A stretch of 64,000 bases of DNA from Minisyncoccota bacterium (GTDB lineage Bacteria > Patescibacteriota > Minisyncoccia > 2-02-FULL-40-12 > GWA2-44-9). The notes below the pieces were generated by a model. It was not told where the DNA came from, searched no databases, and saw nothing but the letters and a program-made list of their open reading frames with translations. The translations under genes and the position numbers were made by a program. The DNA is taken from assembly GCA_030583765.1 (NCBI GenBank), contig CP129474.1:405168-469167 (forward strand), in the 5' to 3' direction. The first letter of the stretch is position 1. Each line of letters opens with the position of its first letter. Below are positions 4,100 through 46,080 of the stretch, piece after piece.

Positions 4100-5440
4100 A
4101 TGGCAGATGCATCTTCAACGGGAAGTCTCGATGAACTCCTCCGCTCTCTTCAGGAAGAGCAAAAAAAGCAACCACCGGTTGCGGCTATGCCGCCCGCCCG
4201 CGAGCAATCTGCCGCCCCGGCGAACACCTCTCAGATCCCCCCTGTGCCAGTGAGCGTTGGGCAAGACCAGCTCGCCGCCCGTCGTACTCAAAAAAGCGAT
4301 GTCCCCTTTCAGCGTAAAAAAATTGATATTGCATCTCTTCCGCCGCTTGGGGGCAAGGCTTCCGCTCCGCAACAGAAACAGCCGTCCCAAGCAAGTGGAG
4401 CCCTTGAAGTAAAGGAGGAAAGCATCCCTGTTCCTCAGGGCCAAAAGACGATCATTCGTACTATGGCGCAAGATATCGCGAGCGCTGGCTCGGGGGGTGT
4501 CCTCTCCACAGGGACTCCCATGGAGGCACCAGTCGTTCTCCCTACACCTTCACGCCCGAAGCCTCAGGAGGCGGCTCAGTCGCCCAGCGAGCCCTCTTTG
4601 ACCGCGCCAGCGCCACAAGTGCCGCCCGCGTCTACGCATCACGGCCGCGTTGGTTCAAGGACAATTGCATACGTTGTCGTTACAGCTATCGCCCTCGGCG
4701 CTGGCGCGGCATATTGGATCTCCCAATCGCCAGAAGCTTCTCGCATGATTCCGCGTGAATCAAAAATCCCAGAGACACTCCCCATCCCCTCGGGAGAGCG
4801 ACAACAACTCTCTGTTTTGTTGGGCGGTGCGCTGGAAACTGTGACGCTTTCAGGCGAAGTTTCCGGCACATCAATACACGACGCCGCATCGTCACTATTG
4901 CCAGCTCCACAGCGTCTACGAAGGTTCCAAATCGCGGGGCTCGGGAACGAGGCGCCCGTAAGTCACCCGCGGGATATTTTTGATGCGCTTGGCGTCGTGC
5001 GTCCTAGCGAGATTGATACTATGTGGGGAGAAGAGGGGGCGATCCTAGTGTTTGGCCAGCCATCGATTTTTAATTCCCGTGGGGTGCTTGTCTCCCCTCC
5101 TCCTACACAGGAGACGCGCCTTATTTTAATCGGAGAAGTACTCGATGTGGCACAAGCATCTGCAGCTATGGATGTGTGGCGCGCGACGGGCGTAGACAAG
5201 TCGCTCGCAGATCTTCTGCGCTACGACATACTTAAGGCGAGCACGCCCGATATTCAAACTGGGACCTATAAGTCATACACAATTCACTACAAAAACTTCC
5301 CCTATAGCGACCGAGCTCTCGACTACGCGCTTGCGGATGGTCCCGATGGCCGAGCATATCTTCTCTTTGCAAGCTCAAAAGAGGCAATGAGCGCGGCGCT
5401 CGACCTTTTCCACGCACAGGCCGGCGAGACTGCTCTCTAG
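4100..5440 (+). CDS. Hypothetical Pro/Gln-rich membrane-anchored protein (one central TM helix, conserved-looking C-terminal domain)
   Basis: A long ORF with a coding-like composition. The low-complexity P/A/Q-rich N-terminal half is followed by the TM segment IAYVVVTAIALGAGAAYWI. The exact start is uncertain; the ATG at 4100 (MADASS...) is preferred over the GTG/ATG at 4070. Confidence 0.55.
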   Translation: MADASSTGSLDELLRSLQEEQKKQPPVAAMPPAREQSAAPANTSQIPPVPVSVGQDQLAARRTQKSDVPFQRKKIDIASLPPLGGKASAPQQKQPSQASGALEVKEESIPVPQGQKTIIRTMAQDIASAGSGGVLSTGTPMEAPVVLPTPSRPKPQEAAQSPSEPSLTAPAPQVPPASTHHGRVGSRTIAYVVVTAIALGAGAAYWISQSPEASRMIPRESKIPETLPIPSGERQQLSVLLGGALETVTLSGEVSGTSIHDAASSLLPAPQRLRRFQIAGLGNEAPVSHPRDIFDALGVVRPSEIDTMWGEEGAILVFGQPSIFNSRGVLVSPPPTQETRLILIGEVLDVAQASAAMDVWRATGVDKSLADLLRYDILKASTPDIQTGTYKSYTIHYKNFPYSDRALDYALADGPDGRAYLLFASSKEAMSAALDLFHAQAGETAL

Positions 5441-5700
5441 GATGTTGGTGACACAGTTGGTGACACAGTTGGTGACACGTGTCATGGCACTAGTGTCACG
5501 AAAACCACGTGACACTATATTTCGTGACACCATGAAAAAGTCATTATATTTTGGCCGTTTCTCCATACAATCGTCAGGGAGATGACACCAAAGGTGTCAT
5601 GGTGTCACTAAATATATTGAGGTGTCACACATGGTGTCGCGTGACACCATGTCACCTATCGTGACGCTGACATATCCACATTTTTGTGTTGACGCTATAT
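5441..5700. repeat. Array 1 of the palindromic heptamer GTGWCAC (about 15 copies in both orientations at about 10-11 bp periodicity, including the 3x tandem 12-mer GTTGGTGACACA)
   Basis: The copies were counted directly in the sequence. The array shares the 17-bp segment CGTGACACCATGAAAAA with array 2. Confidence 0.8.
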
Positions 5701-5716
5701 TTCCGTCGCGTATACT
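5689..5716 (+). promoter_or_regulatory. sigma70-like promoter (TTGACG, 16-nt spacer, TATACT) at the 3' edge of array 1
   Basis: TTGACG at 5689-5694 and TATACT at 5711-5716. It points toward the dksA-like gene. Confidence 0.45.
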
Positions 5717-5807
5717 GGCATTAGTTCCTTGTAGTTGATACGCGTTCGTTTTGTTCCTTCTGGCCGCGCGCAGCGTGCGCCGGTCGGTATATTCCCCCTA
5801 CACAGGG

Positions 5808-5875
5808 GCCCGCCCACTTGGAGAATCAATCCTTATTGTTTCCGGGGCTCGAGGCCCCTGTTTTTGTTTTTTATT
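5808..5875 (+). terminator. Hairpin ACAGGGGCC...GGCCCCTGT followed by TTTTTGTTTTTTATT; a terminator or attenuator upstream of the dksA-like gene
   Basis: A 9-bp inverted repeat with a long loop and a U-tract. It lies between the promoter at 5689 and the dksA-like ATG at 5898. Confidence 0.4.
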
Positions 5876-5897
5876 ATTTCGTATATAATCCATTTCT

Positions 5898-6257
5898 ATG
5901 GACCACGCATCGCTAAAGGCGTTACAGCAAAAACTCGAAGCAGAAAGGGGCGTACTCAAAGAGCGCCTGCGTGAGGTTGGAGTTGAAAATCCAGCGGTTC
6001 CCGGCGATTTCGAGCCAACGCTTCCTAATTATGGCGATGAATACGACGACACAGTAAACGAATCCACTGATTTAGACGCAAATATAGCCGTTGTTTCCGA
6101 GCTTGAGCGGCGATTAAAAGAAATAGAGATTGCACTTGGGAGAATCGAGAACGGTACCTATGGGGCGTGCACGACCTGTTCGACAAAAATAGCAGAAGAA
6201 AGGCTCCACGCGGTCCCTACCGCTGCGCTCTGCAGCACGTGCGCCCAGAAGCTTTAA
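5898..6257 (+). CDS. TraR/DksA-family C4 zinc-finger protein
   Basis: The C-terminal CTTCSTKIAEERLHAVPTAALCSTCAQ is a CxxC-x17-CxxC zinc finger preceded by a coiled-coil-like region. A -10 TATAAT at 5884-5889 sits only 8 nt upstream of the ATG, suggesting a leaderless or very short-leader mRNA. Confidence 0.7.
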   Translation: MDHASLKALQQKLEAERGVLKERLREVGVENPAVPGDFEPTLPNYGDEYDDTVNESTDLDANIAVVSELERRLKEIEIALGRIENGTYGACTTCSTKIAEERLHAVPTAALCSTCAQKL

Positions 6258-6276
6258 AAGCCCCAATGCGGGGCTT

Positions 6277-7806
6277 TTGTGTATGCCAACACGTATTCGA
6301 TCAGCTGGCATTGTAGGCATAGAAGCATCTCCTATCGATGTCGAGGTAGACGCTGTCCCAGGAATACACTCTTTCCTTCTCGTTGGATTGCCCGATAAAG
6401 CAGTGCAAGAATCGAAAGATCGAATAAGCGCGGCTGTGCGCAATAGCTCTTTCGCTCCGCCAAGCGCAAAGCACAAGCGTATTACGATCAGCCTAGCTCC
6501 AGCTGATTTACGAAAAGAAGGGCCCGCCTTCGATCTTCCCATTGCCCTTGGATACCTCGCAGAAACCAAGCAAATACAAGGAGATTGGAGTAACACGCTT
6601 TTTGCTGGGGAGCTTGGACTTGATGGCTCACTGCGCCCTATCCGCGGAGCGCTTCCGCTTGCCCTGTGTGCTCGGGCGGAGGGCGCTCAAGAAGTTGTAT
6701 TGCCCGTCGAAAATGCTCGCGAATGTGCGTGGATTGAAGGGATCTCCATAGTTGGCGCCAGGTCGTTGGGGGAAGTTGTTGCGCACATTATGCAAACAGT
6801 ACGATTAACAAAATGCACGGCGACTATCCGTGATGAGGTAGACGTACATGATCCCTTTGAACATATTGTAGGCCAGGATTCTGCAAAGCGCGCGCTCGTT
6901 GTCGCGGCGGCAGGAGGGCACAACGTGCTGATGTTCGGAGCTCCAGGGTCCGGGAAGACGCTCCTTGCGCGGGCTCTTGCGAGCCTTCTTCCTCCGCTTG
7001 AACACCAAGAAATGCTGGACGTAGCACGCATTTATAGCGCCGCAGGCCTACTCTCCGGAGACGCTGTTCCACGAAGGCGCCCATTTCGTAATCCGCACCA
7101 CACCGCCTCGGCAACTGCTATTATTGGCGGCGGAGCCATCCCCCGCCCTGGGGAAATTAGCTTAGCGCACCGAGGAGTCCTGTTTCTTGATGAACTGCCC
7201 GAGTTTCCCCGCTCGGTTTTAGAAAGCCTACGCCAACCACTCGAAGATGGTGTTGTGACAATCGCGAGAGCTTCTGGGTCAGCAACGCTTCCCGCCCAAT
7301 GCATGCTCGTTGCTGCGATGAATCCATGCCCTTGCGGCAACGCTGGGGATCCAGAGCTTGAGTGCGTGTGCTCTGGTGCGCACATTGCGCGGTACGCAAA
7401 GAAAGTTTCAGGACCGCTACTGGACCGACTGGATATTCAGGTGCGCGTTCCCCGAGAAGTGCGCGCATCATTTAAAAAGGACGTAGCGCCTAATGCTGTG
7501 ATAAATATGCGCGCGAGGGTTGCGCTTGCGTGGCAGATGCAAAAGGAAAGGAACGCTCATTTCGGTATTTTGCGAAACAGCGACATTCGCCACGGTTTTA
7601 TTCACGATGTATGCGCACTTTCTGATGGCGCCGAGCGACTACTTGAGTCTTCTGCGAGGGCATTTAAGCTCTCGATGCGGAGCATTCACCGGATTCAAAA
7701 AATTGCTAGAACTGTCGCTGATTTAGACGGCAAGGCGTGTGTTGAAGAGGGGCATGTAGCCGAGGCGGTGCAATTGCGCACATCCGACATGGTGTCAGCA
7801 ACCTGA
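6277..7806 (+). CDS. comM: Mg-chelatase-like AAA+ ATPase of the YifB/ComM family (competence protein ComM)
   Basis: 509 aa with a Lon-protease-like N-terminal region, Walker A GAPGSGKT, and MLVAAMNPCPCG, the hallmark of YifB/ComM. Confidence 0.9.
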   Translation: MCMPTRIRSAGIVGIEASPIDVEVDAVPGIHSFLLVGLPDKAVQESKDRISAAVRNSSFAPPSAKHKRITISLAPADLRKEGPAFDLPIALGYLAETKQIQGDWSNTLFAGELGLDGSLRPIRGALPLALCARAEGAQEVVLPVENARECAWIEGISIVGARSLGEVVAHIMQTVRLTKCTATIRDEVDVHDPFEHIVGQDSAKRALVVAAAGGHNVLMFGAPGSGKTLLARALASLLPPLEHQEMLDVARIYSAAGLLSGDAVPRRRPFRNPHHTASATAIIGGGAIPRPGEISLAHRGVLFLDELPEFPRSVLESLRQPLEDGVVTIARASGSATLPAQCMLVAAMNPCPCGNAGDPELECVCSGAHIARYAKKVSGPLLDRLDIQVRVPREVRASFKKDVAPNAVINMRARVALAWQMQKERNAHFGILRNSDIRHGFIHDVCALSDGAERLLESSARAFKLSMRSIHRIQKIARTVADLDGKACVEEGHVAEAVQLRTSDMVSAT

Positions 7807-8040
7807 CTAGTGTCACGATAGGTGACACTAGTGACACCGTGTCACCACAGAGATGACACCTATAGTGTCACCAATGACACCAATCGTGACACCATGAAAA
7901 AATAGAGCAAATAAGCCATATTTTGCATCGGTGAGTGGTGCCAAAAATGTTGGTGTCACCTACCGTGACACCCATCGTGACACTAGTGACACCGTGACAC
8001 CCATTGTGACACTTATGGTGACACCTAACATTGGTGACAC
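7807..8040. repeat. Array 2 of GTGWCAC / GGTGWCACC palindromic sites (about 16 copies, about 10-11 bp phasing)
   Basis: The copies were counted directly in the sequence. The array starts immediately after the comM stop and shares segments with array 1. Confidence 0.8.
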
Positions 8041-8072
8041 AAAAATAACCGCCAAGGTGGCGGTTATTTTTG
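8041..8072. terminator. Bidirectional rho-independent terminator (AACCGCC aaggt GGCGGTT, flanked by A-run and T-run) between convergent comM and the M23 peptidase gene
   Basis: A perfect 7-bp stem with a 5-nt loop, A5 upstream and T5 downstream. Confidence 0.65.
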
Positions 8073-9254
8073 TGCGAGCGGGTTCTTCGCTCCATGGACC
8101 TCAAAGTGTAAGTGGCATCCTGTCGACTTTCCCGTTGTTCCCATAAGGGCTATGACATCCCCCTTCTCTACAGTATCGCCAACAGCCACTAGGAGTCGCT
8201 GAGCGTGAGCATAAAGCGTCTCTGTTCCGTTGTTGTGCTGCACCTTAATATATTGGCCAAAACCACCATTATACCCCTCTGCGTCGCTGACAGATACGGT
8301 ACCGCTTGCTGCCGCATGGATGGGGGTGCCACAGGTATTCGCTATATCAACGCCATTGCGTCCATGAACTCTCCCCCAATTGAATCCTATAGTCGGAAGT
8401 TTGAAAAATGAGCCTAAGTCGGGCAGGTATCCAAAACGATTCGTTGCTGAGGCAACGTTTCTCTGTGCACTCATCTTGCCGTCCGGAACGGCAATTTCTT
8501 TACCTATCTGAAGCCTTCCATCACGGGGGATGCCATTAAATGTTATGACAGCGTCCTCAGTAACGCCGTACTTCTTTGCAATGGAGGCGATCGAATCCCC
8601 TTTCTTTACCGTATGCAATACACCAGAAATAGGAGGAATGCGTAGTGTTTGATTTGGCTTTATACTATCGGCATCGCGGAGGTTGTTTGCCCACAAGATT
8701 GATTCTGTAGAGACGCCGAAATCAGAGGCGATGAAAGAAAGAGTGTCCCCCTTTTGGACGCGATATGTAACGGTTCCACTACGTTTTTCAGTGATAAGAG
8801 CTGCGGCATTTTCGTCGGCTGGCGCGACGGTAAGAATTGCGCTCTCGCTAATCATGGCAAGGCTTGGCGATGTGGCGGCCTGCCCACCCCAGCCAGGAAT
8901 CGCCCCAATAGACGATACTGGAGTTTCCTGGGTGACCGTGTGCTCTGGGGACCCAACGAGCGCGGCAAGGTGCGCTTGCGCAAGGCGCAGGGGCTCTTGA
9001 GGGACAAGCGCAAAGCGCTCGCCCTGTGCACTAACCCCCGCGAATGAAAACAGAAGAGCGCTTGCGCCCATAAGTGCAAGAATGGCCTCTTTTTTTGTAC
9101 CGGATGGCACACGAATATCTCGTGTTACGCCCTGGTCCGGCGTGGCGTGCTCAAACGACGAATTGTCGGTGTGAGTATAAATAGTACGTGCGTTACCCTC
9201 TCCCTCTTCGCGTTCTGGTCTGTCGTTTCGTTCATGTGTGGGAAAGAGGCGCAT
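8064..9254 (-). CDS. LysM-domain / M23-family metallo-endopeptidase (cell-wall hydrolase)
   Basis: There are two LysM-like repeats (GDTLSFIASDFGVST..., GDSIASIAKKYGVTED...) and a C-terminal M23 domain (HxxxD...GTTGKSTGCHLHFEV). The track ORF extends to 9569; the ATG at 9254 (MRLFPTHE...) is preferred as the start because of the divergent yraN gene. Confidence 0.8.
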   Translation of the reverse strand: MRLFPTHERNDRPEREEGEGNARTIYTHTDNSSFEHATPDQGVTRDIRVPSGTKKEAILALMGASALLFSFAGVSAQGERFALVPQEPLRLAQAHLAALVGSPEHTVTQETPVSSIGAIPGWGGQAATSPSLAMISESAILTVAPADENAAALITEKRSGTVTYRVQKGDTLSFIASDFGVSTESILWANNLRDADSIKPNQTLRIPPISGVLHTVKKGDSIASIAKKYGVTEDAVITFNGIPRDGRLQIGKEIAVPDGKMSAQRNVASATNRFGYLPDLGSFFKLPTIGFNWGRVHGRNGVDIANTCGTPIHAAASGTVSVSDAEGYNGGFGQYIKVQHNNGTETLYAHAQRLLVAVGDTVEKGDVIALMGTTGKSTGCHLHFEVHGAKNPLAQK

Positions 9255-9323: not shown

Positions 9324-9737
9324 ATGCGTCAACGACCTTCGTCCACACGCGGCTTGAGTGAAAATGGGCAAAAAACGAGCGCTTTTGGCAACTACGCAGA
9401 AGATATGGCGGCGCAATTTTTGGTACGCAGGGGCTATGAGGTACTTGCACGCAATTGGCGCCGACCGTGGGGTGAATTGGACATCGTTGCGCGTGTTCGT
9501 GGGCTTCTTGTGTTTGTAGAGGTGAAGGCAGGAAAGGGTGGGGGAGCTGCTTTTGAGCCAGAGCTGCACGTAACTAGAGAAAAGATACAGAAACTACTGC
9601 GAACCGCGCGCACCTACCTTGCGGCACATAACTATAGCCCCGAACAGGAGTGGCAGATTGACGTCATTTCAGTAATGGTAGATGCGCCAGCGCAGAAGGC
9701 GCACATTCGGCACTATAAAAATATAGAAGTAGGGTAG
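9324..9737 (+). CDS. yraN: UPF0102/YraN-family endonuclease-fold protein
   Basis: AEDMAAQFLVRRGYEVLARNWRRPWGELDIVAR...LVFVEVKA matches the YraN signature. The start is ambiguous between 9303, 9324 and 9405. Confidence 0.7.
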   Translation: MRQRPSSTRGLSENGQKTSAFGNYAEDMAAQFLVRRGYEVLARNWRRPWGELDIVARVRGLLVFVEVKAGKGGGAAFEPELHVTREKIQKLLRTARTYLAAHNYSPEQEWQIDVISVMVDAPAQKAHIRHYKNIEVG

Positions 9738-32798: not shown

Positions 32799-32885
32799 TG
32801 GTGCCCGGGGTGGGAATCGAACCCACACGGCCTTTCGGCCACATCATTTTAAGTGACGTGCGTCTGCCAGTTTCGCCACCCGGAC
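32799..32885 (-). tRNA. tRNA-Leu (anticodon UAA), type II with a long variable arm, CCA encoded
   Basis: Acceptor GTCCGGG/CCCGGGC, anticodon loop CTTAAAA, variable arm TGGCCGAAAGGCCG, and T-arm GTGGGTTCGATTCCCAC. Confidence 0.85.
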
Positions 32886-33356
32886 TTTGCTTTTGTTTTT
32901 TCCTCGATGCGTTGCCTGAAGGCTATGACAATTAGGGCAAAGAATGCGTAAGTTTTCAATCCTATTATCGCTGTGGTCGCCGTTTATATGATCAAGCTCG
33001 ACTGGTATTCTGCCATCTTTTGCAGTTTTTGCCCAGCTGCACTCCTCGCATTGTGGCTGTTTTAATCCTGCCAAGAAAAGACGCTTTTTTAACTTAAAAC
33101 TTTGGAAAGCGCTACCACGCACAAGGATGTCTTCTAGTGTTCTACGTGGTTTCCCGATGCCTCGGAGACCCTTATTCCACGCAGATCCAGTGAAATGATC
33201 TATGGGAACTTGTAGCGCTGTTAGCCTCGCCTTAATGCTTTGGTAGTTCCCGCCGGCGGGGATGAGGTTGAGGCGACTAATAACTTCACGGATGCTTTTG
33301 CTCCGTTGTGTGGCTGTGCGAAGTTTAGCGTCGCTCCACGTGCGTCCTCTTGGCAT
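32844..33356 (-). CDS. Free-standing HNH endonuclease (homing-endonuclease-like), inserted between tRNA genes
   Basis: ELDHINGDHSDNRIENLRILCPNCHS carries the HNH His-Asn-His and Cys4 motif. The last roughly 40 nt of the ORF overlap the 5' half of tRNA-Leu. GC is lower than the flanks. Confidence 0.8.
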   Translation of the reverse strand: MPRGRTWSDAKLRTATQRSKSIREVISRLNLIPAGGNYQSIKARLTALQVPIDHFTGSAWNKGLRGIGKPRRTLEDILVRGSAFQSFKLKKRLFLAGLKQPQCEECSWAKTAKDGRIPVELDHINGDHSDNRIENLRILCPNCHSLQATHRGKNKSKVRVAKLADARHLK

Positions 33357-37189: not shown

Positions 37190-37276
37190 GGAGAGGTGGC
37201 TGAGTGGTTGAAAGCAGCGGTTTACTAAACCGCCGGGCTCGCAAGAGCCTCGTGGGTTCGAATCCCACCCTCTCCG
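37190..37276 (+). tRNA. Ser-like type-II tRNA whose anticodon loop reads TTACTAA (apparent anticodon ACU); possibly tRNA-Ser with a G34A change, or a pseudo/variant tRNA
   Basis: Acceptor GGAGAGG/CCTCTCC-G, 3-bp D-stem GCT/AGC, anticodon stem GCGGT/ACCGC, long variable arm CGGGCTCGCAAGAGCCTCG, and T-arm GTGGGTTCGAATCCCAC. CCA is not encoded. Confidence 0.6.
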
Positions 37277-37431
37277 CATATGCTTTTGAACATGCCTTTA
37301 GGCATATTTAAAAGCATCTAGTGTGGAAAGTGGGGCGGCATTCGAACGGCCGGAGTGATGTTGCGTCACCAGATGCAACCACGAGGCCCGGCCCTGAGGC
37401 TATGACGAGCGACGGCGAGTCAGAGACCGAA

Positions 37432-37463: not shown

Positions 37464-38195
37464 TTATATCTCCCGCGCGATGACGAGCGCGGAGACAGAG
37501 GAAGCGCCTGCGGCGCGTAAAGCTGTGGCGCACGCATCAAGTGTGGCGCCAGTCGTGCATACGTCATCAATGAGCAGAATACTTTTTCCTTTTACGAGCG
37601 AAGGGTGTGGGCATGAGAATAAATTCTGCACTGATAAGAATCGCTCGGTACGCGAATGGTGCACTTGGGTTTCAGTGTGGTGGGTGCGCATAAGTGTGGC
37701 CGGCGCGTAGATCTGCTGTGTGGCGTGCGCAATAATCTCTGCAATGCGCCCTGCTTGGTTGAACCCGCGCCAGTTTAGGCGCCGCGTGTGGAGAGGCACG
37801 GGAACAATGAGGGGGTTTTCGGAAAAGATATTGCGCGTACGCGACATGCGCTTGAGTGCGCGCAACACTACGCGGCCGAGCGGGCGGTGCAAGTCTTCAA
37901 TGCATCCATACTTATATGCGTGAAGTGCGGTGCGCACGGCAGGGTGTTGAAAGTGGGTGGCGGCGTAGAGCGCACTAATATTCCATTCTGGAGCGCACGA
38001 GGAACACGCTACGCCTTGTGGTGTGGCGCGAGCGCAGCCAATACATTGTCCGGATGCGCTCACAGGAATGCGGCCGGCACACGCGCGACAGAGGTAGCGA
38101 TCGCGGGGATCGTAGGGGAGCGCGTCACACGCGACGCATCGCGGCGGGAAAATGGCATCGGCAAGGGTGGTGCACAGCTGGGCGATGGAGGGCAT
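37464..38195 (-). CDS. comFC: ComF-family protein (ComFC; phosphoribosyltransferase-like competence protein with N-terminal double zinc ribbon)
   Basis: An N-terminal zinc-ribbon region with CxxC pairs (CVAC...CRAC...CIGC...CSSC), and a C-terminal PRTase motif ILLIDDVCTTGATL. Confidence 0.8.
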   Translation of the reverse strand: MPSIAQLCTTLADAIFPPRCVACDALPYDPRDRYLCRACAGRIPVSASGQCIGCARATPQGVACSSCAPEWNISALYAATHFQHPAVRTALHAYKYGCIEDLHRPLGRVVLRALKRMSRTRNIFSENPLIVPVPLHTRRLNWRGFNQAGRIAEIIAHATQQIYAPATLMRTHHTETQVHHSRTERFLSVQNLFSCPHPSLVKGKSILLIDDVCTTGATLDACATALRAAGASSVSALVIAREI

Positions 38196-38218
38196 GGTAT
38201 ACTACAGGTGACGTTACC

Positions 38219-39268
38219 ATGTTCAAACTTTTTCAGTCAAAAGGAAAACTCGGTGTCGATATCGGGACACATGCTATTAAAATTGTCGAGCTTGGGAAGG
38301 ATAACGGGCGCTTTACTCTTTTAAACTATGGCATCTTCGCATTTCCCGAAACGGGCACAGGCACAACGCCCGAAGAGCGCGATGCATTCCTTACGCAGGG
38401 GATTAAACAACTCATCGAGCAGTGCAAGTTCTCTAGCGTAGATGCCGTTGCCGCAATTCCACCGTTTTCACTGTTCACGACGGTGATTGAAATGCCGTAT
38501 CTTTCGGAAGACGATCTTGCAAAGGCGATTCCCTTTGAGGCGCGTAAGTATGTTCCTATTCCATTAAGCGAGGTGGTGTTGGATTGGTCTATTATTGGCG
38601 TGAATGAAGCGGCGCCAGGATCTACTACGCCACCAACCGTCGAGATTTTTATTGCTGCCGTACCTCGCGAAGAAACAGCTCGCTATCAGGCGATCATGCA
38701 AGCGGCTGGTTTAAATCTTGTTGCACTCGAATTGCAGAACACGGGGCTTATCCGTGGACTACTCGGTAACGATTTAAGTCCCACGGCGGTCGTTGATATC
38801 GGAGGGCGGGGCACAACTATTATTGTCGTGAATAAGGGATATGAACGAGTGAATCGTTCCTATGAGGTGGGGAGTTTTGAAATTACGAAATCCATTGCTC
38901 GCGCGTTGAGCATCAGTGAAGGGAAGGCAGAGGGATTGAAGATGCAGTATGGTTTGCGCGAGGGAGATGACAATGTTATTCGCGATTCAGTAATTTCGCT
39001 TGTCGACCTCATTGTATTTGAAGCAAGCAAAACAATCGCCGGATATGAGGAGTCTAAAAATACAAAAATCGGCCGCGTTGTCGTTACCGGAGGGCTCGCA
39101 AATATGCCAGGTTTTGTTGCATATTTTACAAAGCGTCTCGCGCGCGATGTTATTGTGGGGAATGCGTTCTCTCGGGTTGTCTACCCACAGCAGTTGGCGC
39201 CGGTGATTCAAGAGCTTTCAAACACGCTTGCGGTAGCCACAGGTTTAGCCATGCGCGAAGAAAGCTAA
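38219..39268 (+). CDS. pilM: Type IV pilus assembly protein PilM (actin-like ATPase)
   Basis: MFKLFQSKGKLGVDIGTHAIKIVEL, the typical PilM N-terminus. The start is taken at ATG 38219, 23 bp from the divergent comFC. Confidence 0.8.
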   Translation: MFKLFQSKGKLGVDIGTHAIKIVELGKDNGRFTLLNYGIFAFPETGTGTTPEERDAFLTQGIKQLIEQCKFSSVDAVAAIPPFSLFTTVIEMPYLSEDDLAKAIPFEARKYVPIPLSEVVLDWSIIGVNEAAPGSTTPPTVEIFIAAVPREETARYQAIMQAAGLNLVALELQNTGLIRGLLGNDLSPTAVVDIGGRGTTIIVVNKGYERVNRSYEVGSFEITKSIARALSISEGKAEGLKMQYGLREGDDNVIRDSVISLVDLIVFEASKTIAGYEESKNTKIGRVVVTGGLANMPGFVAYFTKRLARDVIVGNAFSRVVYPQQLAPVIQELSNTLAVATGLAMREES

Positions 39269-39309
39269 TGGTATACTAGCGACAGGGAGCATTCCGCTCT
39301 CTCTTTCCT

Positions 39310-39939
39310 ATGCCAGGCCGCGGCGGCATTCAACTTCTACCTACACTTCCCGGCACCAAGAAAATCGACGTAGCAACGCCGGGGGAATACACCGTACTCA
39401 TTATTGGAGTACTTATTTTCGCTGTGGGCATTGGGTTTTCGCTGTTCGCGTGGCTACAGGTGAAGGCAAAGGAAGAAAAAATTGCAGCATTGAACGTAGA
39501 AATCGAGCAGATTGAAAAATCACGTATTGTAAAAGATGAGCAAACAATTATTGCGTTTCGCAAGCAGCTTGCTCCCGTGGGAAGCATTCTCGACAATCAC
39601 ATATTTGTATCTCAAGGCTTAACGGCTCTTGAGAGCCTTATCCACTCTAAAGTGCAAGTAAAAAACTTATCAATACAAGCACAGCAAGGCTCTGTGTCGG
39701 TGAGGGGATTTGCTCCAGATTACACAACGATCGCGCAACAGCTTGCTACGTTCTTGCGTAAAAATAAGCATGTTACCTCTGCGGTGCTTGGCGGCATGCA
39801 AACAAACAATGCGGGCGGACTTGATTTCGACGTATCGCTTTCAGTGAATAGCGATGCATTTTTCAAGAAGCAACCATCGCCAACGCCTCGGCCGAGCCCT
39901 TCTGGTAAGCCATCTCCCGCAGTTTCTCCTCAGCTATGA
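39310..39939 (+). CDS. pilN: Type IV pilus assembly protein PilN
   Basis: A single N-terminal TM segment, a coiled-coil and a periplasmic domain. It sits in the pilMNO order. Confidence 0.65.
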   Translation: MPGRGGIQLLPTLPGTKKIDVATPGEYTVLIIGVLIFAVGIGFSLFAWLQVKAKEEKIAALNVEIEQIEKSRIVKDEQTIIAFRKQLAPVGSILDNHIFVSQGLTALESLIHSKVQVKNLSIQAQQGSVSVRGFAPDYTTIAQQLATFLRKNKHVTSAVLGGMQTNNAGGLDFDVSLSVNSDAFFKKQPSPTPRPSPSGKPSPAVSPQL

Positions 39940-40523
39940 ATCTCCCCGCTGCGCCAAAAGACATGATCGGTGCGACGCTTGCGGCCATTGGCGTCGCGTT
40001 GGGTTGGGGCTTGGGATACGCACACATGAGCACCTTGGGCGCCCATGATGATGCTATAGCTGAGCGCGAGAGCTTTGTAGAGAAACGCCTTCAGCAAAAA
40101 GCGAATTTTGAGGATCTGTTTGCGGCATACACCTCAGCGAGTGATATTAAGCGCGCAACGCAGGAGATTTTGCCCACCGAAGAAAATATTCCCGAACTTA
40201 TTTCTGCGTTGCAGCAAATGGCTCGCGACTCTGGCGTCGGGGTAAAATCAATTTCAGTGACAGGCGCAGGAGGGGGGAAGGGCACACAGGCATCAGTGAC
40301 GATCCAGCAAGTGGGTATTTCGCTGAGTGTGCAGGGTTCGTATAGTAGTATCAAAACTCTCCTCTCGTTTATAGAGAAGAATCGTCGCATCATTGATGTC
40401 TCAACAATAGATTTTGCTCCAAGTGCAATTGATACGACGATCATTGATACGACGATCTCCGCGAGTGCTTACGTTGCACCCGAACAAGCGCAGCGTGATG
40501 AAGAAACGCCGACGAAGAAGTAA
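39936..40523 (+). CDS. pilO: Type IV pilus assembly protein PilO
   Basis: An N-terminal TM segment plus a coiled-coil, overlapping the pilN stop by 4 bp. Confidence 0.6.
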   Translation: MNLPAAPKDMIGATLAAIGVALGWGLGYAHMSTLGAHDDAIAERESFVEKRLQQKANFEDLFAAYTSASDIKRATQEILPTEENIPELISALQQMARDSGVGVKSISVTGAGGGKGTQASVTIQQVGISLSVQGSYSSIKTLLSFIEKNRRIIDVSTIDFAPSAIDTTIIDTTISASAYVAPEQAQRDEETPTKK

Positions 40524-40538
40524 ATTCTTTTCATACCA

Positions 40539-40823
40539 ATGACACAGCAATCTTCCGGATCACAAATATACATTATTCTCGGCGCGATTGTGCTCTTGGG
40601 GGCCGTTGCGGGATACATTGTTTCGGGCATGGTGAGTCAGGGTGTAGATATCCCTCCATACACTGTCCAAAAACCTGATACACTCAAAGAGCTTGATGGC
40701 CCCGGATTTCAATTTGGGTTGTTGCGCGGCAACGCAACATATACTTCGTTGCAGTCGTTCGGTGAGTCGACAGTAACAATCCCAGCAGGAGGTCGTCTCA
40801 ACATGTTCGCGCCCGTGCAGTAA
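40539..40823 (+). CDS. Small membrane protein in the pilus locus (PilP-like position)
   Basis: 94 aa with an N-terminal TM segment IYIILGAIVLLGAVAGYIV. The call rests on its position only. Confidence 0.4.
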   Translation: MTQQSSGSQIYIILGAIVLLGAVAGYIVSGMVSQGVDIPPYTVQKPDTLKELDGPGFQFGLLRGNATYTSLQSFGESTVTIPAGGRLNMFAPVQ

Positions 40824-40829
40824 TCATGT

Positions 40830-42590
40830 ATGGCAAATCGTACCCCCATTCTCCTGATTCAAGAATTAGTTCGTCAAAACCTCATTACCGAGGATGCGGC
40901 GCTTGCGCTTGACGCGCGCGCACGTCAGGAGCGGAAAGATCTTTCAGATTTGCTTGTCGAGCAAAATATTATTTCAGAAAAGGATCTCACCGCACTTCGT
41001 TCAAAGCTATATAAATTGCCGAGCCTCGACGCAGGCACGCTGCAGCCAAACCCAGACGCACTTGCGCTTATCCCAGAAGATGTTGCTGCTTTTTATCGCA
41101 TTGTCGCATTTGATCGGGATGACACTACACTGAAGGTGGCATTGGTAAACCCAGAGGATATCGATGCCCTTGAGGCGTTGAAATTCGTTGCTGTAGGAAA
41201 GGGGCTCCGCCTTGAAAAATACATTGTATCCGCCCAAGGGCTCGAAAAGCTTCTCGCGAATAATCGCACATTGAGTGGCGATGTTGGACTTGCGCTTGAT
41301 GCGCTGGCACAAGATGCTACCGAAGTGAAGGCAGAAGCAGAGGCGAGTACGTTGCAGCTTGAAGAGATTACCGCAGAATCTCCGGTTATTAAGATTGTTG
41401 GCGCTATTTTAAAACATGCCGTTGAGTCTCGTGCTTCGGATATTCACATCGAGCCGTTTGAAGAGCGCGTACGAGTACGCTATCGCATCGATGGTGCGTT
41501 GGTGAAAACACTGCAACTCCCGCGGCAGCTGCACCCCGCAATTGTCACGCGTGTCAAAATTCTCTCCGAGCTCAAGATTGATGAAACGCGCATCAGTCAA
41601 GATGGTCGATTCTCGCTTCGCGTTGGTAGCCGCAAGATCGATTATCGTGTTTCCACGCTACCCACGAAACATGGTGAAAAAATTGTGATGCGTATTCTTG
41701 ATCCATTCGGGAATGATGTCGGCATGGAACAGTTGGGATTTCAAGACGAACCGCGCGCCGCGCTGGAGCGTGCAATCGCAAAGCCATACGGGAGCATCCT
41801 TATCACCGGTCCTACAGGCTCTGGTAAATCAACAACGATTGCTGCGGTGCTGCGACGATTGAACACGGAAGATGTAAACATTGTGACCTTGGAAGATCCG
41901 GTAGAATATTTTTTGGATGGAGTAAACCAGTCTCAGGTGCATGAAGAAATTGGCTACACGTTTGCCACCGGGTTGCGTAGTATTTTGCGCCAAGACCCGG
42001 ATATCGTAGTGGTCGGTGAAGTGCGTGACCATGAAACGGCGGGTCTTGCAACACAAGCCGCACTCACTGGCCACCTCGTGCTCTCAACGCTGCACACGAA
42101 TGATGCGATCGGAGTCATTCCTCGTCTCATTGATATGGGAATCGAGAAATATCTTATTCCGCCAACCCTTAATGTGGTGGTGGGGCAACGGTTGGTGCGC
42201 AGACTATGCAAAGCGTGTGCGCTCACCGAAAAAGCGAACGCAACCGAGCAGGAAATGATTACTAAAGCGGTGCAAGAAATGCCGCGAGCGTATCAAGAGA
42301 CATATGCGGTGAAGGACGGTTACACAATCCAAAAGCCAAATATCAATCCTGGCGGGTGTCCGGAGTGTGGCGGGAAGGGATACAAAGGCCGTGTCGGTGT
42401 TTATGAGGTGCTCGAAATGACCCCCGCAATCGAAAAGCTAGTGCTCAGCACCTTTTCCGAGGCTGCGCTTCGTCAGGAAGCGGAGCGACAGGGGATGCTT
42501 ACTATGTATCAAGATGGTATTCTCAAGGTGCTCCAAGGCATGGCGTCGCTTCAGGACATCTTAGAGCTTGTTGGCGATTCTTCATCATGA
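40830..42590 (+). CDS. pilB: Type IV pilus assembly ATPase PilB (GspE family)
   Basis: N-terminal GspII_N-like domains, Walker A GPTGSGKSTT, and a tetracysteine motif CPECGGKGYKGR. Confidence 0.9.
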   Translation: MANRTPILLIQELVRQNLITEDAALALDARARQERKDLSDLLVEQNIISEKDLTALRSKLYKLPSLDAGTLQPNPDALALIPEDVAAFYRIVAFDRDDTTLKVALVNPEDIDALEALKFVAVGKGLRLEKYIVSAQGLEKLLANNRTLSGDVGLALDALAQDATEVKAEAEASTLQLEEITAESPVIKIVGAILKHAVESRASDIHIEPFEERVRVRYRIDGALVKTLQLPRQLHPAIVTRVKILSELKIDETRISQDGRFSLRVGSRKIDYRVSTLPTKHGEKIVMRILDPFGNDVGMEQLGFQDEPRAALERAIAKPYGSILITGPTGSGKSTTIAAVLRRLNTEDVNIVTLEDPVEYFLDGVNQSQVHEEIGYTFATGLRSILRQDPDIVVVGEVRDHETAGLATQAALTGHLVLSTLHTNDAIGVIPRLIDMGIEKYLIPPTLNVVVGQRLVRRLCKACALTEKANATEQEMITKAVQEMPRAYQETYAVKDGYTIQKPNINPGGCPECGGKGYKGRVGVYEVLEMTPAIEKLVLSTFSEAALRQEAERQGMLTMYQDGILKVLQGMASLQDILELVGDSSS

Positions 42591-43657
42591 TTGATCCAAA
42601 AGCATTTCTTGCAGAGTTGCTCACTATTACCGCACAACAGGGTGCGTCCGATTTGCACCTTTCACCTGGGTACTATCCCGTGGTGCGCGTTGATCGTCGT
42701 CTCATGCCGCTCACTAATAAGCCGATCCTTGATCGAGAGACTTTGGAAAGTCTCGCCGACCTTCTCATGGGACCGGAGCGAAAGGAGCGTTTTAAGAAGG
42801 ATCGAGAGCTCGACTTCTCATTTAGTTTTGAAGATAAGGCTCGCTTTCGCGTAAATGCCTACTATACCAAAGGGAATATCGCTGCCGTGCTACGTTTTGT
42901 CCCCGATAATATCCGGACCCTTGAAGAGCTCAAGTTGCCCCCGATACTGAATGTGTTCACGAAGCTTTCACAAGGTCTTGTGTTGGTGGTTGGGCCGAAT
43001 GGACACGGCAAATCAACGACGCTCGCGGCCATGATTGAGCGGATCAACCAAGAGCGTGCGGAAAAAATTGTCACCATTGAAGACCCGATTGAGGCTATTT
43101 ATAAATCGGAGAAGAGTATTATTGACCAACGTGAGGTGGAGCAGGACACCCTTTCATTCTATAAGGCGCTCCGCGGGACATTTCGTCAGGATAACAATGT
43201 GATTGTGGTTGGTGAAATGCGCGACTATGAAACGATGAGCGCTGCGGTCACTGCCGCAGAGACGGGCCGCTTAGTGTTCGCATCATTGCACACCAACAGT
43301 GCGCCCCAAACAGTGGAGCGTATTATTGACAGCTTCCCACCGGAGCAACAGCCGCAGATTCGCGTTCAGCTCGCAAATATTCTTTCTGGAGTTGTGTCAC
43401 AGCGTCTCGTGCCGCGTATCCAAGGGGGGCTTGCCGCTGCCGTTGAAGTGATGATGGGCACTACCGCAGTGCGCACGATGATTCGAGAAAATAAGATTAA
43501 ACAATTAGAGCAGGTTATTGAGACAAGCCAAGATGTGGGCATGATCTCGCTTGATCGATCGCTTGCCGACTTAGTGCGCAAGCAGGAGGTGAGTATTGAG
43601 AATGCTGAATTCTACGCCACAAACCCACAGAACCTGAGGTCAATGCTGCGCATATAA
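42587..43657 (+). CDS. pilT: Twitching-motility/retraction ATPase PilT
   Basis: LVLVVGPNGHGKSTTLAAMI and the AIRNLIRE-like motif VRTMIRENKIKQLE. Confidence 0.88.
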   Translation: MIDPKAFLAELLTITAQQGASDLHLSPGYYPVVRVDRRLMPLTNKPILDRETLESLADLLMGPERKERFKKDRELDFSFSFEDKARFRVNAYYTKGNIAAVLRFVPDNIRTLEELKLPPILNVFTKLSQGLVLVVGPNGHGKSTTLAAMIERINQERAEKIVTIEDPIEAIYKSEKSIIDQREVEQDTLSFYKALRGTFRQDNNVIVVGEMRDYETMSAAVTAAETGRLVFASLHTNSAPQTVERIIDSFPPEQQPQIRVQLANILSGVVSQRLVPRIQGGLAAAVEVMMGTTAVRTMIRENKIKQLEQVIETSQDVGMISLDRSLADLVRKQEVSIENAEFYATNPQNLRSMLRI

Positions 43658-43659
43658 TT

Positions 43660-44868
43660 ATGGAATTTCTCTATCAAGCCAAAGACCAAACGGGTCGCGT
43701 GTTGCAGGGTGTGGTTGACGCGCCAAACGAGGGGATCGCAGTTGATACTCTGCATAATAAAGGGCTTACCCTCCTTTCTATTCAATCAGCGAAAAAACCT
43801 CTCGTCTATTCTGATATCGGCCTTCTTTTTTCTAAGCCAAAGCAGAAGGACATCGTTATTTTTACGCGCCAGTTAGCAACGCTCATTGAAGCGGAAATGC
43901 CGCTCGCCGAAGGCTTGCGTACGCTCGCAAAGCAGACAGAAAAGAAAACATTCCAGAAAATCATCAATGACATAGCTGATTCCGTTGAATCGGGCGTAGG
44001 GCTTGCTGACTCCATGAATGCTCATGTGAGTCTTTTCTCTCCTTTTTATGTCAAATTGGTAAAGTCAGGAGAAATCTCCGGTAAATTACAGGAATCACTT
44101 CAGTATCTTGCTGACTACTTAGAGCGAAGCTACGCCCTTACGGCAAAACTAAAAGGGGCCCTTGCATATCCTGCATTCATTATTTTTGCGATGGCTGTTG
44201 TCGTTATTATTATGATGACCTATGTGCTCCCGCAGCTACTCGTTGTCTTTGAAGAGGCGGGGAACATTGAACTCCCGCTCCAGACGCGCCTTCTTATTGC
44301 CACTTCAAACTTCATGACGGAGTACATCGTCTATATTCTTGTAGCCTTAGTGTTGGGTGCGGTTGGTCTTTGGCGATATATAAAAACGCCGACGGGCCGC
44401 GTACAATTTGACGCGCTCCAACTGCGCGTGCCTGGGTTTGGAAAGATTTTCCGTAACGTATACCTGTCTCGCATCGCAGAAATTTTTTCCACGCTTATTA
44501 AGTCAGGTGTGGGCATTTTGGACGCTATTAAACTTGTTGCAGATCTTGTTGGCAACAAATCCTATGAAGCTTTACTACTCAAGGTAGAGCAAACGGTTCG
44601 AGGCGGGGGAGGTGTTGCCACTACGCTTGCAGAAAATCCAACGCTTATTCCTGCGCTCATGAGCTCCATGGTCGCCATCGGTGAGAAGACTGGTAAGCTC
44701 GATAGCATGCTTACGTATGTGGCAAAGTTTTATCGTGCTGAATCTGAGTCAAGCGTGCAGTCCATCTCTTCGCTTGTGGAGCCTGTGCTCATGCTTTTCC
44801 TTGGTTTTGGTGTTGCAGTGTTGGTTTCTGCAATTCTTTTACCGCTCTACAGCCTTACTGCGCAATAG
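43660..44868 (+). CDS. pilC: Type IV pilus platform protein PilC (GspF family)
   Basis: Two repeated GspF domains and three TM regions; 402 aa. Confidence 0.85.
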   Translation: MEFLYQAKDQTGRVLQGVVDAPNEGIAVDTLHNKGLTLLSIQSAKKPLVYSDIGLLFSKPKQKDIVIFTRQLATLIEAEMPLAEGLRTLAKQTEKKTFQKIINDIADSVESGVGLADSMNAHVSLFSPFYVKLVKSGEISGKLQESLQYLADYLERSYALTAKLKGALAYPAFIIFAMAVVVIIMMTYVLPQLLVVFEEAGNIELPLQTRLLIATSNFMTEYIVYILVALVLGAVGLWRYIKTPTGRVQFDALQLRVPGFGKIFRNVYLSRIAEIFSTLIKSGVGILDAIKLVADLVGNKSYEALLLKVEQTVRGGGGVATTLAENPTLIPALMSSMVAIGEKTGKLDSMLTYVAKFYRAESESSVQSISSLVEPVLMLFLGFGVAVLVSAILLPLYSLTAQ

Positions 44869-44918
44869 TGTTGTTGATAATATCCCTTGTGCCTCTGTGC
44901 GGTAAGCGCGATAATACA

Positions 44919-45443
44919 ATGCAGCGATATATGAAACATTCCCACCTCCGCTCTCGGTTTGCTCGAGGCTTCACGCTCGTTGAGTTGCTGGTGGTCATTG
45001 CCATCATTGGTATTTTGGCAACTACTGGGCTGACGCAGCTCGGATCTGCACGCGCGAAAGCGCGCGATGCCCGTCGCATTTCTGACATACGTGAAATAGC
45101 GCAGGTGATCGAGTTTTATAATAATAGTGAAGATGATGGATATCCCGCCGACATTACTGCAGGTACGCTCGATGCGTATATTTCAGGCAATGTGGTACCA
45201 ACGGATCCAGCGACCGGAGACCCATACAACTACGCGACGTCCGTAGGCGCCCCCCGCCGCTACTATCATCTCTGGATTGAGCTGGAGGCGTACTCCCGAG
45301 TTCTTGAGAGCGATGCGGACATTGATTCAGAGACCCTCACCGAATGGACCGGCGATACTATCGATGCGTCTGATAGCGCCATAACCGAGGCTTGCACAAC
45401 TGCTGACAATGACTGCGTGTATGATGTGGGGCAGAAGTTATAA
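44919..45443 (+). CDS. Type IV (pseudo)pilin, major pilin paralog 1
   Basis: Class III signal RGFTLVELLVVIAIIGILA, and a C-terminal Cys pair (CTTADNDCVYDVGQK). Confidence 0.8.
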   Translation: MQRYMKHSHLRSRFARGFTLVELLVVIAIIGILATTGLTQLGSARAKARDARRISDIREIAQVIEFYNNSEDDGYPADITAGTLDAYISGNVVPTDPATGDPYNYATSVGAPRRYYHLWIELEAYSRVLESDADIDSETLTEWTGDTIDASDSAITEACTTADNDCVYDVGQKL

Positions 45444-45517
45444 TGTAGTTATAAACAATAATCGTGGCGAACCGGGCGGTCTCTTGAGAACACACGGCGC
45501 GCCACACCATTTCTAGT

Positions 45518-46018
45518 ATGCGAAAAAAATTACAACAAGGATTTACACTGATTGAGCTGCTGGTGGTCATTGCCATCATCGGTATTTTGGCAACAACAGC
45601 ACTCACTCAGTTGGGAAGTGCGCGCGGACGTGCACGTGATGCAAAGCGCTTAAGTGATATTGCGCAAATCGCACAGGCGATCGAGATCCACAATGATCAA
45701 GTGGGTGGATATCCGGACGATATCTATACAGATCTTATCAACTACATCTCTGGGACGACGGTCCCAATAGACCCCTCAACCGATGGGGAATATAACTATC
45801 TGTATCGTGGCGGTTCGGCTGGTAAGCGAACGGCGTACCACCTTTGGGCTGAATTAGAGTCCAATAATAGGGCGTTAAATAGTGATGCCGACATCAATTC
45901 GAGGGAAGTCTTAACGCCAGCATGGACTGTTGGCAGTGGTGCGGCGGAAGATGGCGCAGCAGAAACATGCACAAACTCGTCTTCTATTGACTGTGTCTAC
46001 GACATCGGACAGAAGTAA
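45518..46018 (+). CDS. Type IV pilin, major pilin paralog 2
   Basis: MRKKLQQGFTLIELLVVIAIIGILA and a C-terminal CTNSSSIDCVYDIGQK. It is collinear with paralog 1. Confidence 0.8.
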   Translation: MRKKLQQGFTLIELLVVIAIIGILATTALTQLGSARGRARDAKRLSDIAQIAQAIEIHNDQVGGYPDDIYTDLINYISGTTVPIDPSTDGEYNYLYRGGSAGKRTAYHLWAELESNNRALNSDADINSREVLTPAWTVGSGAAEDGAAETCTNSSSIDCVYDIGQK

Positions 46019-46035
46019 TTGTACGCACAAAAACA

Positions 46036-46067: not shown

Positions 46068-46080
46068 GTATGATGACTCT

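Follow-up and report, generated by a model that had tools for sequence, protein, structure and literature searches.

Paired arrays of the heptamer GTGWCAC around the dksA-like–comM unit of a Minisyncoccota chromosome

We describe two non-coding repeat arrays in a 64,000-nucleotide stretch of the Minisyncoccota bacterium contig CP129474.1 (positions 405,168 to 469,167; hereafter the window, from whose first base all window coordinates are counted), which consist of many copies of the self-complementary heptamer GTGWCAC (W being an A or T centre) and enclose the competence and recombination helicase gene comM with its promoter, leader RNA and a preceding dksA-like gene. Judged by their sequence, these arrays are real, clade-conserved clusters of a protein-binding-type motif. 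Their plan is a known one, that of the iteron arrays of phages, satellites and plasmids, and their context is new: they are fixed in the core chromosome of a member of the candidate phyla radiation (CPR) around comM and coupled to an unclassified leader RNA. Iteron arrays with an A/T-rich core are a hallmark of mobile-element replicons, and a conserved pair in the 0.6-Mb core chromosome of Patescibacteria is unexpected. From this anatomy and by analogy, we tentatively favour the possibility that the arrays are iteron-style binding fields for a winged-helix-type protein, which would bring the two together and govern the unit formed by promoter, leader, dksA and comM. For comparison we used the loci of related Paceibacterota whose ComM proteins are 82% (L244/L245), 80% (L246/L247) and 57% (L248) identical, together with two strains 98.8% identical to the window (L003 and L250).

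GTGWCAC occurs 28 times in the window, against 6.56 ± 2.34 times in dinucleotide-preserving shuffles (maximum 13; 0 of 100 reach 28), and 23 of the 28 copies lie within 5448-5647 and 7810-8040 (binomial tail for 23 of 28 copies within 500 bp, 3e-44). The remaining five are singletons dispersed over the other 63 kb at chance level, and the arrays that an earlier note had described from the letters of this DNA are thus upheld, with an enrichment that within the window is peculiar to this locus. With sites counted as exact or with at most one mismatch, the arrays hold the roughly 15 copies each that the note had estimated (Table 1), and both centre bases are used, as it had said, with 16 A and 7 T among the 23 exact copies. 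The 9-bp form GGTGWCACC fares less well: its heptamer core is real, but the full 9-mer is found in only a minority of window sites, the position before the heptamer being G in 9 and C in 9 of the 23 exact copies and the position after it C in 11 of 23. The core GT-N3-AC is present in every site, and the extended site in the relatives is ttgGTGWCACcaa, mostly good on one flank only.

The spacing of the sites does not follow the helical repeat. The 30 centre-to-centre intervals measure 7 (two), 8 (four), 9 (three), 12 (twelve), 14-20 (seven), 58 and 67 bp, and none of the 30 across both arrays is 10, 11 or 13 bp. Compared with random placement, the arrays give Rayleigh vector strengths of 0.13 (P = 0.8) and 0.17 (P = 0.7) at 10.5 bp, and long-range coherence at 12 bp is likewise absent from both arrays. 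The sites therefore do not all lie on one face of the helix, and the phasing at 10-11 bp proposed in the earlier note has to be given up.

Each array is instead bipartite, with two clusters, of 6-9 sites each, around a motif-free, A/T-richer core. The two cores of the window are 51-60 bp long, and their A+T content (Table 1) compares with 51-53% in the array remainder and 47% in the window as a whole. All seven clade arrays examined retain a single motif-free gap in their middle, 36-74 bp long, at 52-70% A+T versus 44-53% in the array remainder, an enrichment that is only moderate. The cores open with an A-run and close with a T-run, both beside the innermost sites. Since the heptamer core is self-complementary, the orientation of a site can be read from its flanks alone; judged in this way, the two innermost sites both point towards the core in 4-5 of 6 arrays, and the clusters are mixed, in L248 too.

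The arrays fit closely between their neighbours. Array 1 starts 1 bp past the stop codon of an upstream, unannotated membrane-protein gene, and array 2, whose first site overlaps the final comM codons, occupies the space from the comM stop to the terminator into which it leads straight, as noted before. This hairpin, with A/T runs on both sides, is common to the comM unit and the convergent LysM/M23 peptidase gene. Open reading frames (ORFs) running across the arrays are not conserved in the relatives, in agreement with their description as non-coding, and no consistent promoter was found in the array cores. Within array 1, the 12-mer GTTGGTGACACA stands in three tandem copies at 5444-5479; the run had been called perfect, and it is so except for the final base of the third copy, which deviates. 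The 18-nt segment TCGTGACACCATGAAAAA is common to 5522-5539 and 7884-7901 at 100% identity and ATATTTTG is found in both cores, bearing out the longer shared segments reported earlier.

Conservation and turnover within the clade

The gene order xerC-rpsO-NYN-pnp-unknown-[array]-dksA-comM-[array]-LysM/M23(-)-yraN is kept down to 57% ComM identity, and both arrays were found at matching syntenic positions in L244/L245 and L246/L247, when they were sought in other genomes of the lineage. In L248 we find a large array 1 only, with the drifted motif GGTGACAT/ATGTCACC around a 74-bp A/T-rich core; the absence of array 2 there indicates that the older array is the one upstream of the operon. Together with the lack of any composition break at the locus, this conserved order tells against the mobile cassette that had been suggested.

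Between species with ComM proteins about 80% identical the inter-site sequence cannot be aligned, whereas the sites and the bipartite plan persist, and the retention of sites while the sequence between them turns over implies selection on the sites themselves. Change is rapid even between strains: L250 has two rather than three copies of the 12-mer in array 1, and L003 lacks 12 bp of array 2 and shows A<->T flips at the centre base that are not compensated. In L244 some 190 bp are common to both arrays, at about 88% identity; with the identical 18-nt segment of the window, this confirms the earlier view that the arrays are related copies. Array 2 arose as a copy of array 1, and the L244 pair has been homogenised recently. 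In L246 an assembly gap (a run of N, 6281-6380) lies at the start of array 1 beside six perfect tandem copies of GTGACACAGTAG, and the assembled copy number there may accordingly differ from the true one.

Such turnover raises the question of whether the arrays are a functionless expansion, in which a self-complementary unit has spread through two spacers by slippage and gene conversion. Copy number does shift in 12-bp units, perfect tandem runs occur (threefold in the window, but for the base mentioned, and sixfold beside the L246 gap), and the L244 arrays are homogenised. We nonetheless regard expansion as improbable: irregular spacing and mixed orientation do not result from simple tandem slippage, the heptamer is kept while its flanks turn over across species at 80% identity, the bipartite plan with its central gap recurs in all seven arrays, and a streamlined 0.6-Mb genome keeps about 500 bp of such sequence at fixed positions.

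The centre-base flips also bear on an action at the RNA level, with the arrays transcribed as 3' untranslated regions and serving as structured stabilisers, terminators or a protein-sponge RNA. Both arrays follow + strand stop codons, their predicted folds are much stronger than those of shuffled sequences (z = -5.7 and -9.2), and sites resembling terminators, with a hairpin and a T-run, occur inside them. The strong fold, however, is the automatic outcome of a self-complementary repeat. Array 2 holds seven consecutive A-centre sites without perfect partners, and such same-type runs, like the uncompensated flips, fit a symmetric reader that recognises duplex DNA and speak against RNA hairpins. 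Site symmetry and the use of both orientations point the same way, no Rfam family is represented, and we consider this explanation highly improbable.

The arrays are restricted to one clade. They are absent from 80 further metagenome comM loci (44-51% identity), only two of which, both distant CPR loci, have repeats upstream of dksA-comM or comM, unrelated to those described here: at 2050-2330 of L278 there are perfect palindromes (GTTTGTCGACAAAC twice and TGTTTRGCGCTAAACA twice) and CCGGCAAT/ATTGCCGG repeats, and at 913-1152 of L291 CAGGAAT occurs eight times. Nor are palindromes enriched around comM in other CPR genomes generally (0.59 vs 0.57 per kb; 80 loci). Beyond 1-2 singletons we find no further sites outside the locus in L244, L246 and L248 (about 60 kb), and the lack of sites there and in the rest of the window makes the factor that reads them appear dedicated to this locus, like the factors of rep/par modules. 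It also speaks against a DNA-uptake site, one of the functions considered in the earlier note, since uptake sequences come in hundreds of dispersed copies and only chance singletons lie elsewhere in about 120 kb of clade sequence. Dispersed palindromes of the repetitive extragenic palindrome or bacterial interspersed mosaic element type are rejected because the arrays are confined to two orthologous positions, both fixed; integron attC sites, tyrosine-recombinase arm sites and CRISPR are rejected on the anatomy, for want of R'/R'' motifs, an adjacent dedicated integrase and spacer structure.

The enclosed transcription unit

The arrays bracket exactly one transcription unit, in the order array 1, promoter, leader, dksA-like gene, comM and array 2 (Table 1), and the identification of the enclosed genes as TraR/DksA-like and comM is confirmed by profile searches. 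ComM is identical to WKZ26936.1 (Candidatus Paceibacterota) and comprises a Lon-like N-terminal domain (ChlI), an AAA+ domain of the Mg_chelatase/MCM clade and Mg_chelatase_C, with similarity to PF00493 at E 3e-9. Domain searches reveal no primase and no extra DNA-binding or winged-helix domain, an alignment with 11 homologues shows no clade-specific insertion or extension, and by these sequence criteria ComM is here a canonical YifB protein.

Table 1. Coordinates of the arrays and of the features between and beside them
Feature	Position	Strand	Details
Array 1	5441-5671	.	15 GTGWCAC-type sites, 9 exact
Array 1, left cluster	5448-5530		
Array 1, motif-free core	5531-5581		61% A+T
Array 1, right cluster	5582-5667		
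DnaA-box-like 9-mer	5672-5680	+	ATATCCACA, at the promoter-proximal edge of array 1
Predicted sigma-70-type promoter	5689-5716	+	TTGACG-16-TATACT, 10/12 matches
Predicted leader / small RNA, ~150 nt	5722-5876	+	Intrinsic terminator 5844-5858 plus T-run at the end
DksA/TraR-family (YteA-like) C4 zinc-finger protein, 119 aa	5898-6257	+	PF01258, E 3e-8
comM / YifB, 507 aa	6283-7806	+	TIGR00368, 519 bits, full length
Array 2	7792-8040	.	17 sites, 14 exact
Array 2, left cluster	7792-7892		
Array 2, motif-free core	7893-7952		63% A+T
Array 2, right cluster	7953-8040		
Bidirectional intrinsic terminator	8038-8074	.	Perfect 17-nt arms, 3-nt loop

Array 1 and the predicted promoter, a strong one, are closely linked. 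The array ends about 20 bp upstream of the -35 element, which falls within a degenerate copy of the motif; the 48 bp from the last array 1 site through the -35 element are identical in the window, L244 and L246. The three promoter-proximal sites hold their position in all of these, and L248 has two sites within the spacer of its promoter.

The predicted leader RNA is, with its promoter, present at 5689-5876 of the window, 9410-9594 of L244, 6680-6862 of L246 and 9345-9502 of L248. Its 3' 120 nt are almost invariant in the three close species despite a ComM identity of only 80%, and, as a 1-nt indel shows, the segment is not coding. Pairing of 5803-5809 with 5853-5859 is mutually exclusive with the leader terminator, giving the leader the look of an attenuator. 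A covariance model of this RNA finds it only in the four genomes with arrays and not in the 80 other CPR comM loci, and the restriction of arrays and leader to the same clade makes them look like one acquired unit. The leader has no Rfam family, in a gathering-threshold search of the window and in E-value searches of 5300-8200 and 5700-5900, and the only Rfam matches in the window and the locus were tRNAs and meaningless miRNA-precursor matches from long hairpins. Viral homologues of the leader were rejected: a 20-mer matched three related contigs within an endolysin gene, by chance, and the covariance model matched none.

Between array 1 and the promoter lies the DnaA-box-like 9-mer, which has a counterpart at the same edge of array 1 in each relative (ATATCCACA in L244, ATATCCACT in L246 and the perfect TTATCCACA in L248, at about 9326-9334), and L248 keeps its perfect copy although the surrounding sequence cannot be aligned. 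This DnaA-box-like 9-mer and the two repeat clusters, which have A/T-rich cores and flank genes in the manner of a bipartite origin, might suggest the chromosomal oriC, possibly a bipartite one. DnaA boxes with at most one mismatch are, however, no more frequent in the 64 kb than expected (8 vs 10.7), with a single one at the locus, and the array motif is not a DnaA box. GC skew, never below zero on either side, rises from about +0.02 upstream to about +0.07 downstream with no change of sign (window, L001, L244, L246 and L248; about 10 kb upstream), the upstream genes run co-directionally towards the arrays, and an oriC is in our judgement the least credible of the explanations considered.

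A centromere is another function that the layout brings to mind, and one that the earlier note had named. In plasmid R1, parC has two iteron clusters around a core, and in pB171 parC1 and parC2 flank parAB; these loci thus resemble ours in having 10-18 short sites in two clusters around a core, or two arrays flanking a two-gene operon. An adaptor bound to the arrays would form a segrosome, and the locus does offer two bipartite arrays of about 15-17 short sites each around a two-gene unit of a small protein and an NTPase, with no sites elsewhere. The enclosed genes, though, belong to the DksA/TraR and YifB/ComM families rather than being ParA, ParM or TubZ with a ribbon-helix-helix or winged helix-turn-helix adaptor, and no partition NTPase or adaptor is present at the locus. 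The gene pair is also widespread among CPR genomes that have no arrays, and the array cores lack a consistent promoter. Partition sites are therefore a very doubtful interpretation, and of the earlier idea of plasmid or phage elements it is the iteron part that survives, as the closest known design.

Origin-like counterparts and possible functions

In looking for a reader of the sites we find, among the window proteins searched and in the flanks of the relatives, no initiator, Rep, GntR-type gene or evident transcription factor. The 456-aa membrane protein upstream of array 1 has no match in Pfam, NCBIfam or a PDB sequence search, the other nearby ORFs gave no candidate binder either, and a PaaX-like protein of L248 was rejected as the binder because it has no homologue in the window. 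One indication of the type of reader comes from the site itself. Operators of the FadR subfamily of GntR (winged-helix) regulators have the consensus TKGT-N3-ACMA, with a conserved centre and a variable periphery (PMC4494728). The 13-mer TTGGTGWCACCAA of the relatives conforms to this consensus, and our sites share its GT-N3-AC core and its conserved centre and variable periphery. They differ in number, since GntR regulators normally have one or two operators and here there are about 32 sites, and in that few of them match TKGT-N3-ACMA on both sides (a single site in the window, 5 of 18 sites in L244, 6 of 25 in L246). A GntR/FadR-type reader is thus a lead suggested by sequence likeness, not a family membership. 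The same crowding of about 32 sites at one locus sets the arrays apart from SOS (LexA) boxes.

The heptamer is by no means confined to this clade. We scanned IMG/VR and GTDB genomes for three close heptamers (pattern GTGACACN{1,5}GTGWCACN{1,5}GTGWCAC), ranking the listed loci by site density, and found about 39 mixed-orientation arrays among the matches listed. A frequent plan in these consists of outer sites, an inner GTGACAC pair or triplet, a 60-110 bp A/T-rich centre and an inverted GTGTCAC pair. At 14 of the approximately 39 listed loci a large gene abuts the array by its 3' end (0-183 bp), encoding PrimPol-D5_N-DUF5906/Pox_D5, PriCT or Toprim-VapE, or AAA_25 primase-helicases; three more listed arrays directly abut genes for a DnaB-like helicase, a DUF3987 helicase and a Cch (MCM-like) helicase C-terminal helix-turn-helix domain, and at one further locus a PrimPol-DUF5906 protein is encoded 1.1 kb off. 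The C-termini of these viral proteins look like winged-helix domains. As the scan was seeded with this heptamer, selection accounts in part for its turning up beside such diverse replicases. The viral arrays of GTGACAC(/T) sites span contigs of 36-70% G+C and no record annotates them; origin-like examples are L218, L109, L231, L198, L174, L228, L204/L186, L156, L154, L146/L160/L164 and others. A match in Saccharibacteria (L066) proved to be a coding VTTVSP repeat and a false positive.

Among isolated phages, Arthrobacter phage RootBeer (L336, PQ184833) carries at 4276-4541, downstream of its primase/helicase gene, GTGACAC and GTGACAT sites with inverted inner pairs and a 56-bp centre. The earlier statement that no described element has this motif is thus superseded, both by its use in many phage and satellite origin-like arrays and by the fit of GT-N3-AC to the GntR/FadR consensus, even though a motif-string search of the literature gave nothing relevant. 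Lactobacillus phage A2 shows the same plan with another iteron sequence: its annotated rep_origin begins at the primase gene's 3' end, with iterons (ACGGGAGGAT) that lie 12 bp apart on one side of an A/T core of about 55 bp and, inverted, 8 and 12 bp apart on the other. For the pathogenicity islands of Staphylococcus aureus (SaPIs) this plan has been stated as a rule, with 6-12 iterons of 5-10 bp directly downstream of the rep ORF, opposed on the two sides of an A/T-rich centre and read by the C-terminal winged-helix domain of a self-loading helicase of superfamily 3 or MCM-like type (PMC9371898).

Our arrays resemble the SaPI and A2 origins in having many short iterons in both orientations, in two clusters around an A/T-rich centre; the 12, 8 and 12 bp spacings of A2 also occur in the window. 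Array 2 starts at the stop codon of comM, a gene of the AAA+ helicase family but no known initiator, whereas array 1 follows an unrelated membrane-protein gene and L248 has no array 2. The arrays are unlike these origins in that ComM lacks a primase and a C-terminal winged-helix domain, that the older array of the clade lies upstream of the operon, that the sites are near-palindromic where those of phages have directional flanks, that the cores are only moderately A/T-rich, and that they stand in a stable chromosome, not in a mobile element.

The two-array layout has its closest parallel in satellite P4 (NC_001609), whose annotation gives ori, an operon ending in the alpha primase-helicase gene, and crr 46 bp past the alpha stop, with one octamer in both ori and crr. 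Here, too, an operon that ends in a hexameric helicase gene and has a small RNA or leader region at its start, in P4 the CI RNA, stands between two arrays of one repeat, present in either orientation. P4 differs in its repeat (TGTTCACC), in the distance between its arrays (4.7 kb vs 2.1-2.3 kb here) and in that alpha itself carries the primase and iteron-binding domains that ComM does not have, the unit here being without any primase or D5/P4-family domain; it is also a mobile satellite with an integrase and attP, whereas the xerC-like gene 5 kb upstream of our arrays is syntenic in all relatives. An array-gene-array layout is likewise seen in P1 incC-repA-incA, F and RepFIB, in which the rep promoter lies in or abuts the first array and the second array titrates and handcuffs, and in replicons of the P1 type a DnaA box stands beside the iterons and the A/T-rich region. 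The layout, the promoter abutting array 1 and the DnaA-box-like 9-mer beside it are shared by our locus. The P1-type repeats, however, are direct, 17-22 bp long and bound by Rep monomers, and the gene they enclose is rep, while no Rep was found here.

These likenesses make replication the main rival to a regulatory function: an initiator supplied in trans, or ComM with a partner, would bind the iterons, melt the A/T core and load a hexameric helicase; replication would proceed locally in both directions, or ComM would gain entry at defined sites, in what would be a P4- or SaPI-like module in a chromosome. To the fit with the SaPI rule, A2 and P4 can be added the association of GTGACAC arrays with replicative helicase genes in about 18 of the 39 listed loci and in RootBeer, the position of array 2 behind an AAA+ gene with MCM-clade similarity, the 9-mer that borders array 1 in each of the four genomes, and the convergence of the innermost sites of 4-5 of 6 arrays on the core. 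On the other side stand the canonical YifB nature of ComM, without a winged-helix origin-binding domain or clade insertion, the lack of a primase, Rep or initiator among the window proteins searched, the ancestral array upstream of the operon rather than behind the helicase gene (L248), the near-palindromic form of many sites, the stable housekeeping neighbourhood and cores of only 52-70% A/T. We consider an origin or helicase-loading role unlikely, while taking it seriously, and we give rather less credence to its specific form, a chromosomal P4/SaPI-style replicon module around ComM in which the arrays are genuine origin or helicase-loading sites for ComM or a trans initiator.

The viral arrays suggest a further explanation, in which the arrays mimic the origin iterons of phages infecting this lineage, as a decoy or hitch-hiker for a phage replicase, and either titrate the initiator, in a natural counterpart of phage-origin-mediated resistance, or amplify dksA-comM in infection. 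The heptamer and architecture are those of many viral origin-like arrays, no cognate binder was found encoded locally, and the fast turnover (12-bp copy steps in 98.8% identical strains, drift in L248) is what an arms race would produce. The extended site TTGGTGWCACCAA, however, occurs in no viral contig except one unrelated element of 62% G+C (L332), array 2 has no BLASTN match in phage and plasmid collections, and fixed syntenic placement at one operon and the linkage to promoter and leader are left unexplained; we think there is only a slight chance that this is the function. The exceptional contig, a plasmid- or phage-like element from IMG/VR, has at 7679-7950 an array of GTTGGTGACAC(C) sites, with GTTGGTGAC three times and a centre of about 100 bp, between RuvC-like and multicopper oxidase genes and 2.2 kb from a Toprim-VapE primase gene, and its extended site is that of the window 12-mer.

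In the regulatory reading that we tentatively favour, each array would be a duplex-DNA binding field of one sequence-specific protein, most likely of winged-helix type and not encoded in the window, which reads the invariant GT-GWC-AC, usually extended on one side to TTGGTGWCAC. This protein would coat both arrays cooperatively and, once bound, control the abutting promoter; array 1 would then be paired with array 2 by handcuffing or looping, as in P1 incC-incA or P4 ori-crr, so that the leader-dksA-comM unit is insulated and regulated. The binding protein, its type, the pairing and the regulatory outcome are suggested by anatomy and analogy, and several points weigh against them. Searches of the neighbours in Pfam and NCBIfam give no candidate binder in or beside the unit, nor has ComM an extra domain, and dedicated regulators are usually adjacent to their unit. 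About 32 sites are far beyond the need of ordinary operators, array 2 has no promoter to regulate, two-sided palindromes are few, and an origin would account for the A/T-rich core and the DnaA-box-like element better than an operator does.

Whichever function applies, the operon wrapped by the arrays encodes ComM together with a DksA-like RNA-polymerase factor and a leader RNA specific to the clade, in a group, the Patescibacteria, whose members are believed to rely on the uptake of DNA. Regulatory arrays would point to an unrecognised dedicated DNA-binding factor that controls DNA-uptake-linked recombination by looping or insulation. If they load a helicase or fire, they would form the first chromosomal ComM-centred origin-like module, tying ComM to its MCM and self-loading-helicase relatives, and would allow local replication or amplification of leader-dksA-comM or programmed entry points for the recombination helicase. 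Two by-products of the analysis are that iteron origins of GTGACAC type behind replicative helicase genes appear to be widespread in uncultured phages, and that the clade has an unclassified, almost invariant RNA.

Other features of the window

Elsewhere in the window, we find a complete type IV pilus or competence-pilus block on the + strand (38018-49812), 30 kb from comM, which comprises a PilM-like protein, PilB/T/C-type ATPases and platform protein, several prepilins and a prepilin peptidase; PilM is confirmed by Pfam, and the remainder was read from N-terminal prepilin motifs in the ORF list. On the - strand, an HNH endonuclease gene (32844-33356; PF13392/PF01844) lies between tRNA-Leu and tRNA-Cys genes and is possibly a homing-type or mobile insertion. 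ARAGORN predicts a tRNA-Ser with anticodon ACU (loop TTACTAA) at 37190-37277 (+), 86 bp past a tRNA-Ser(GCU) of the normal kind. In bacteria, an unmodified A34 is uncommon in tRNAs other than tRNA-Arg, and the prediction may represent a miscall, a decoder of the inosine type or a pseudogene.

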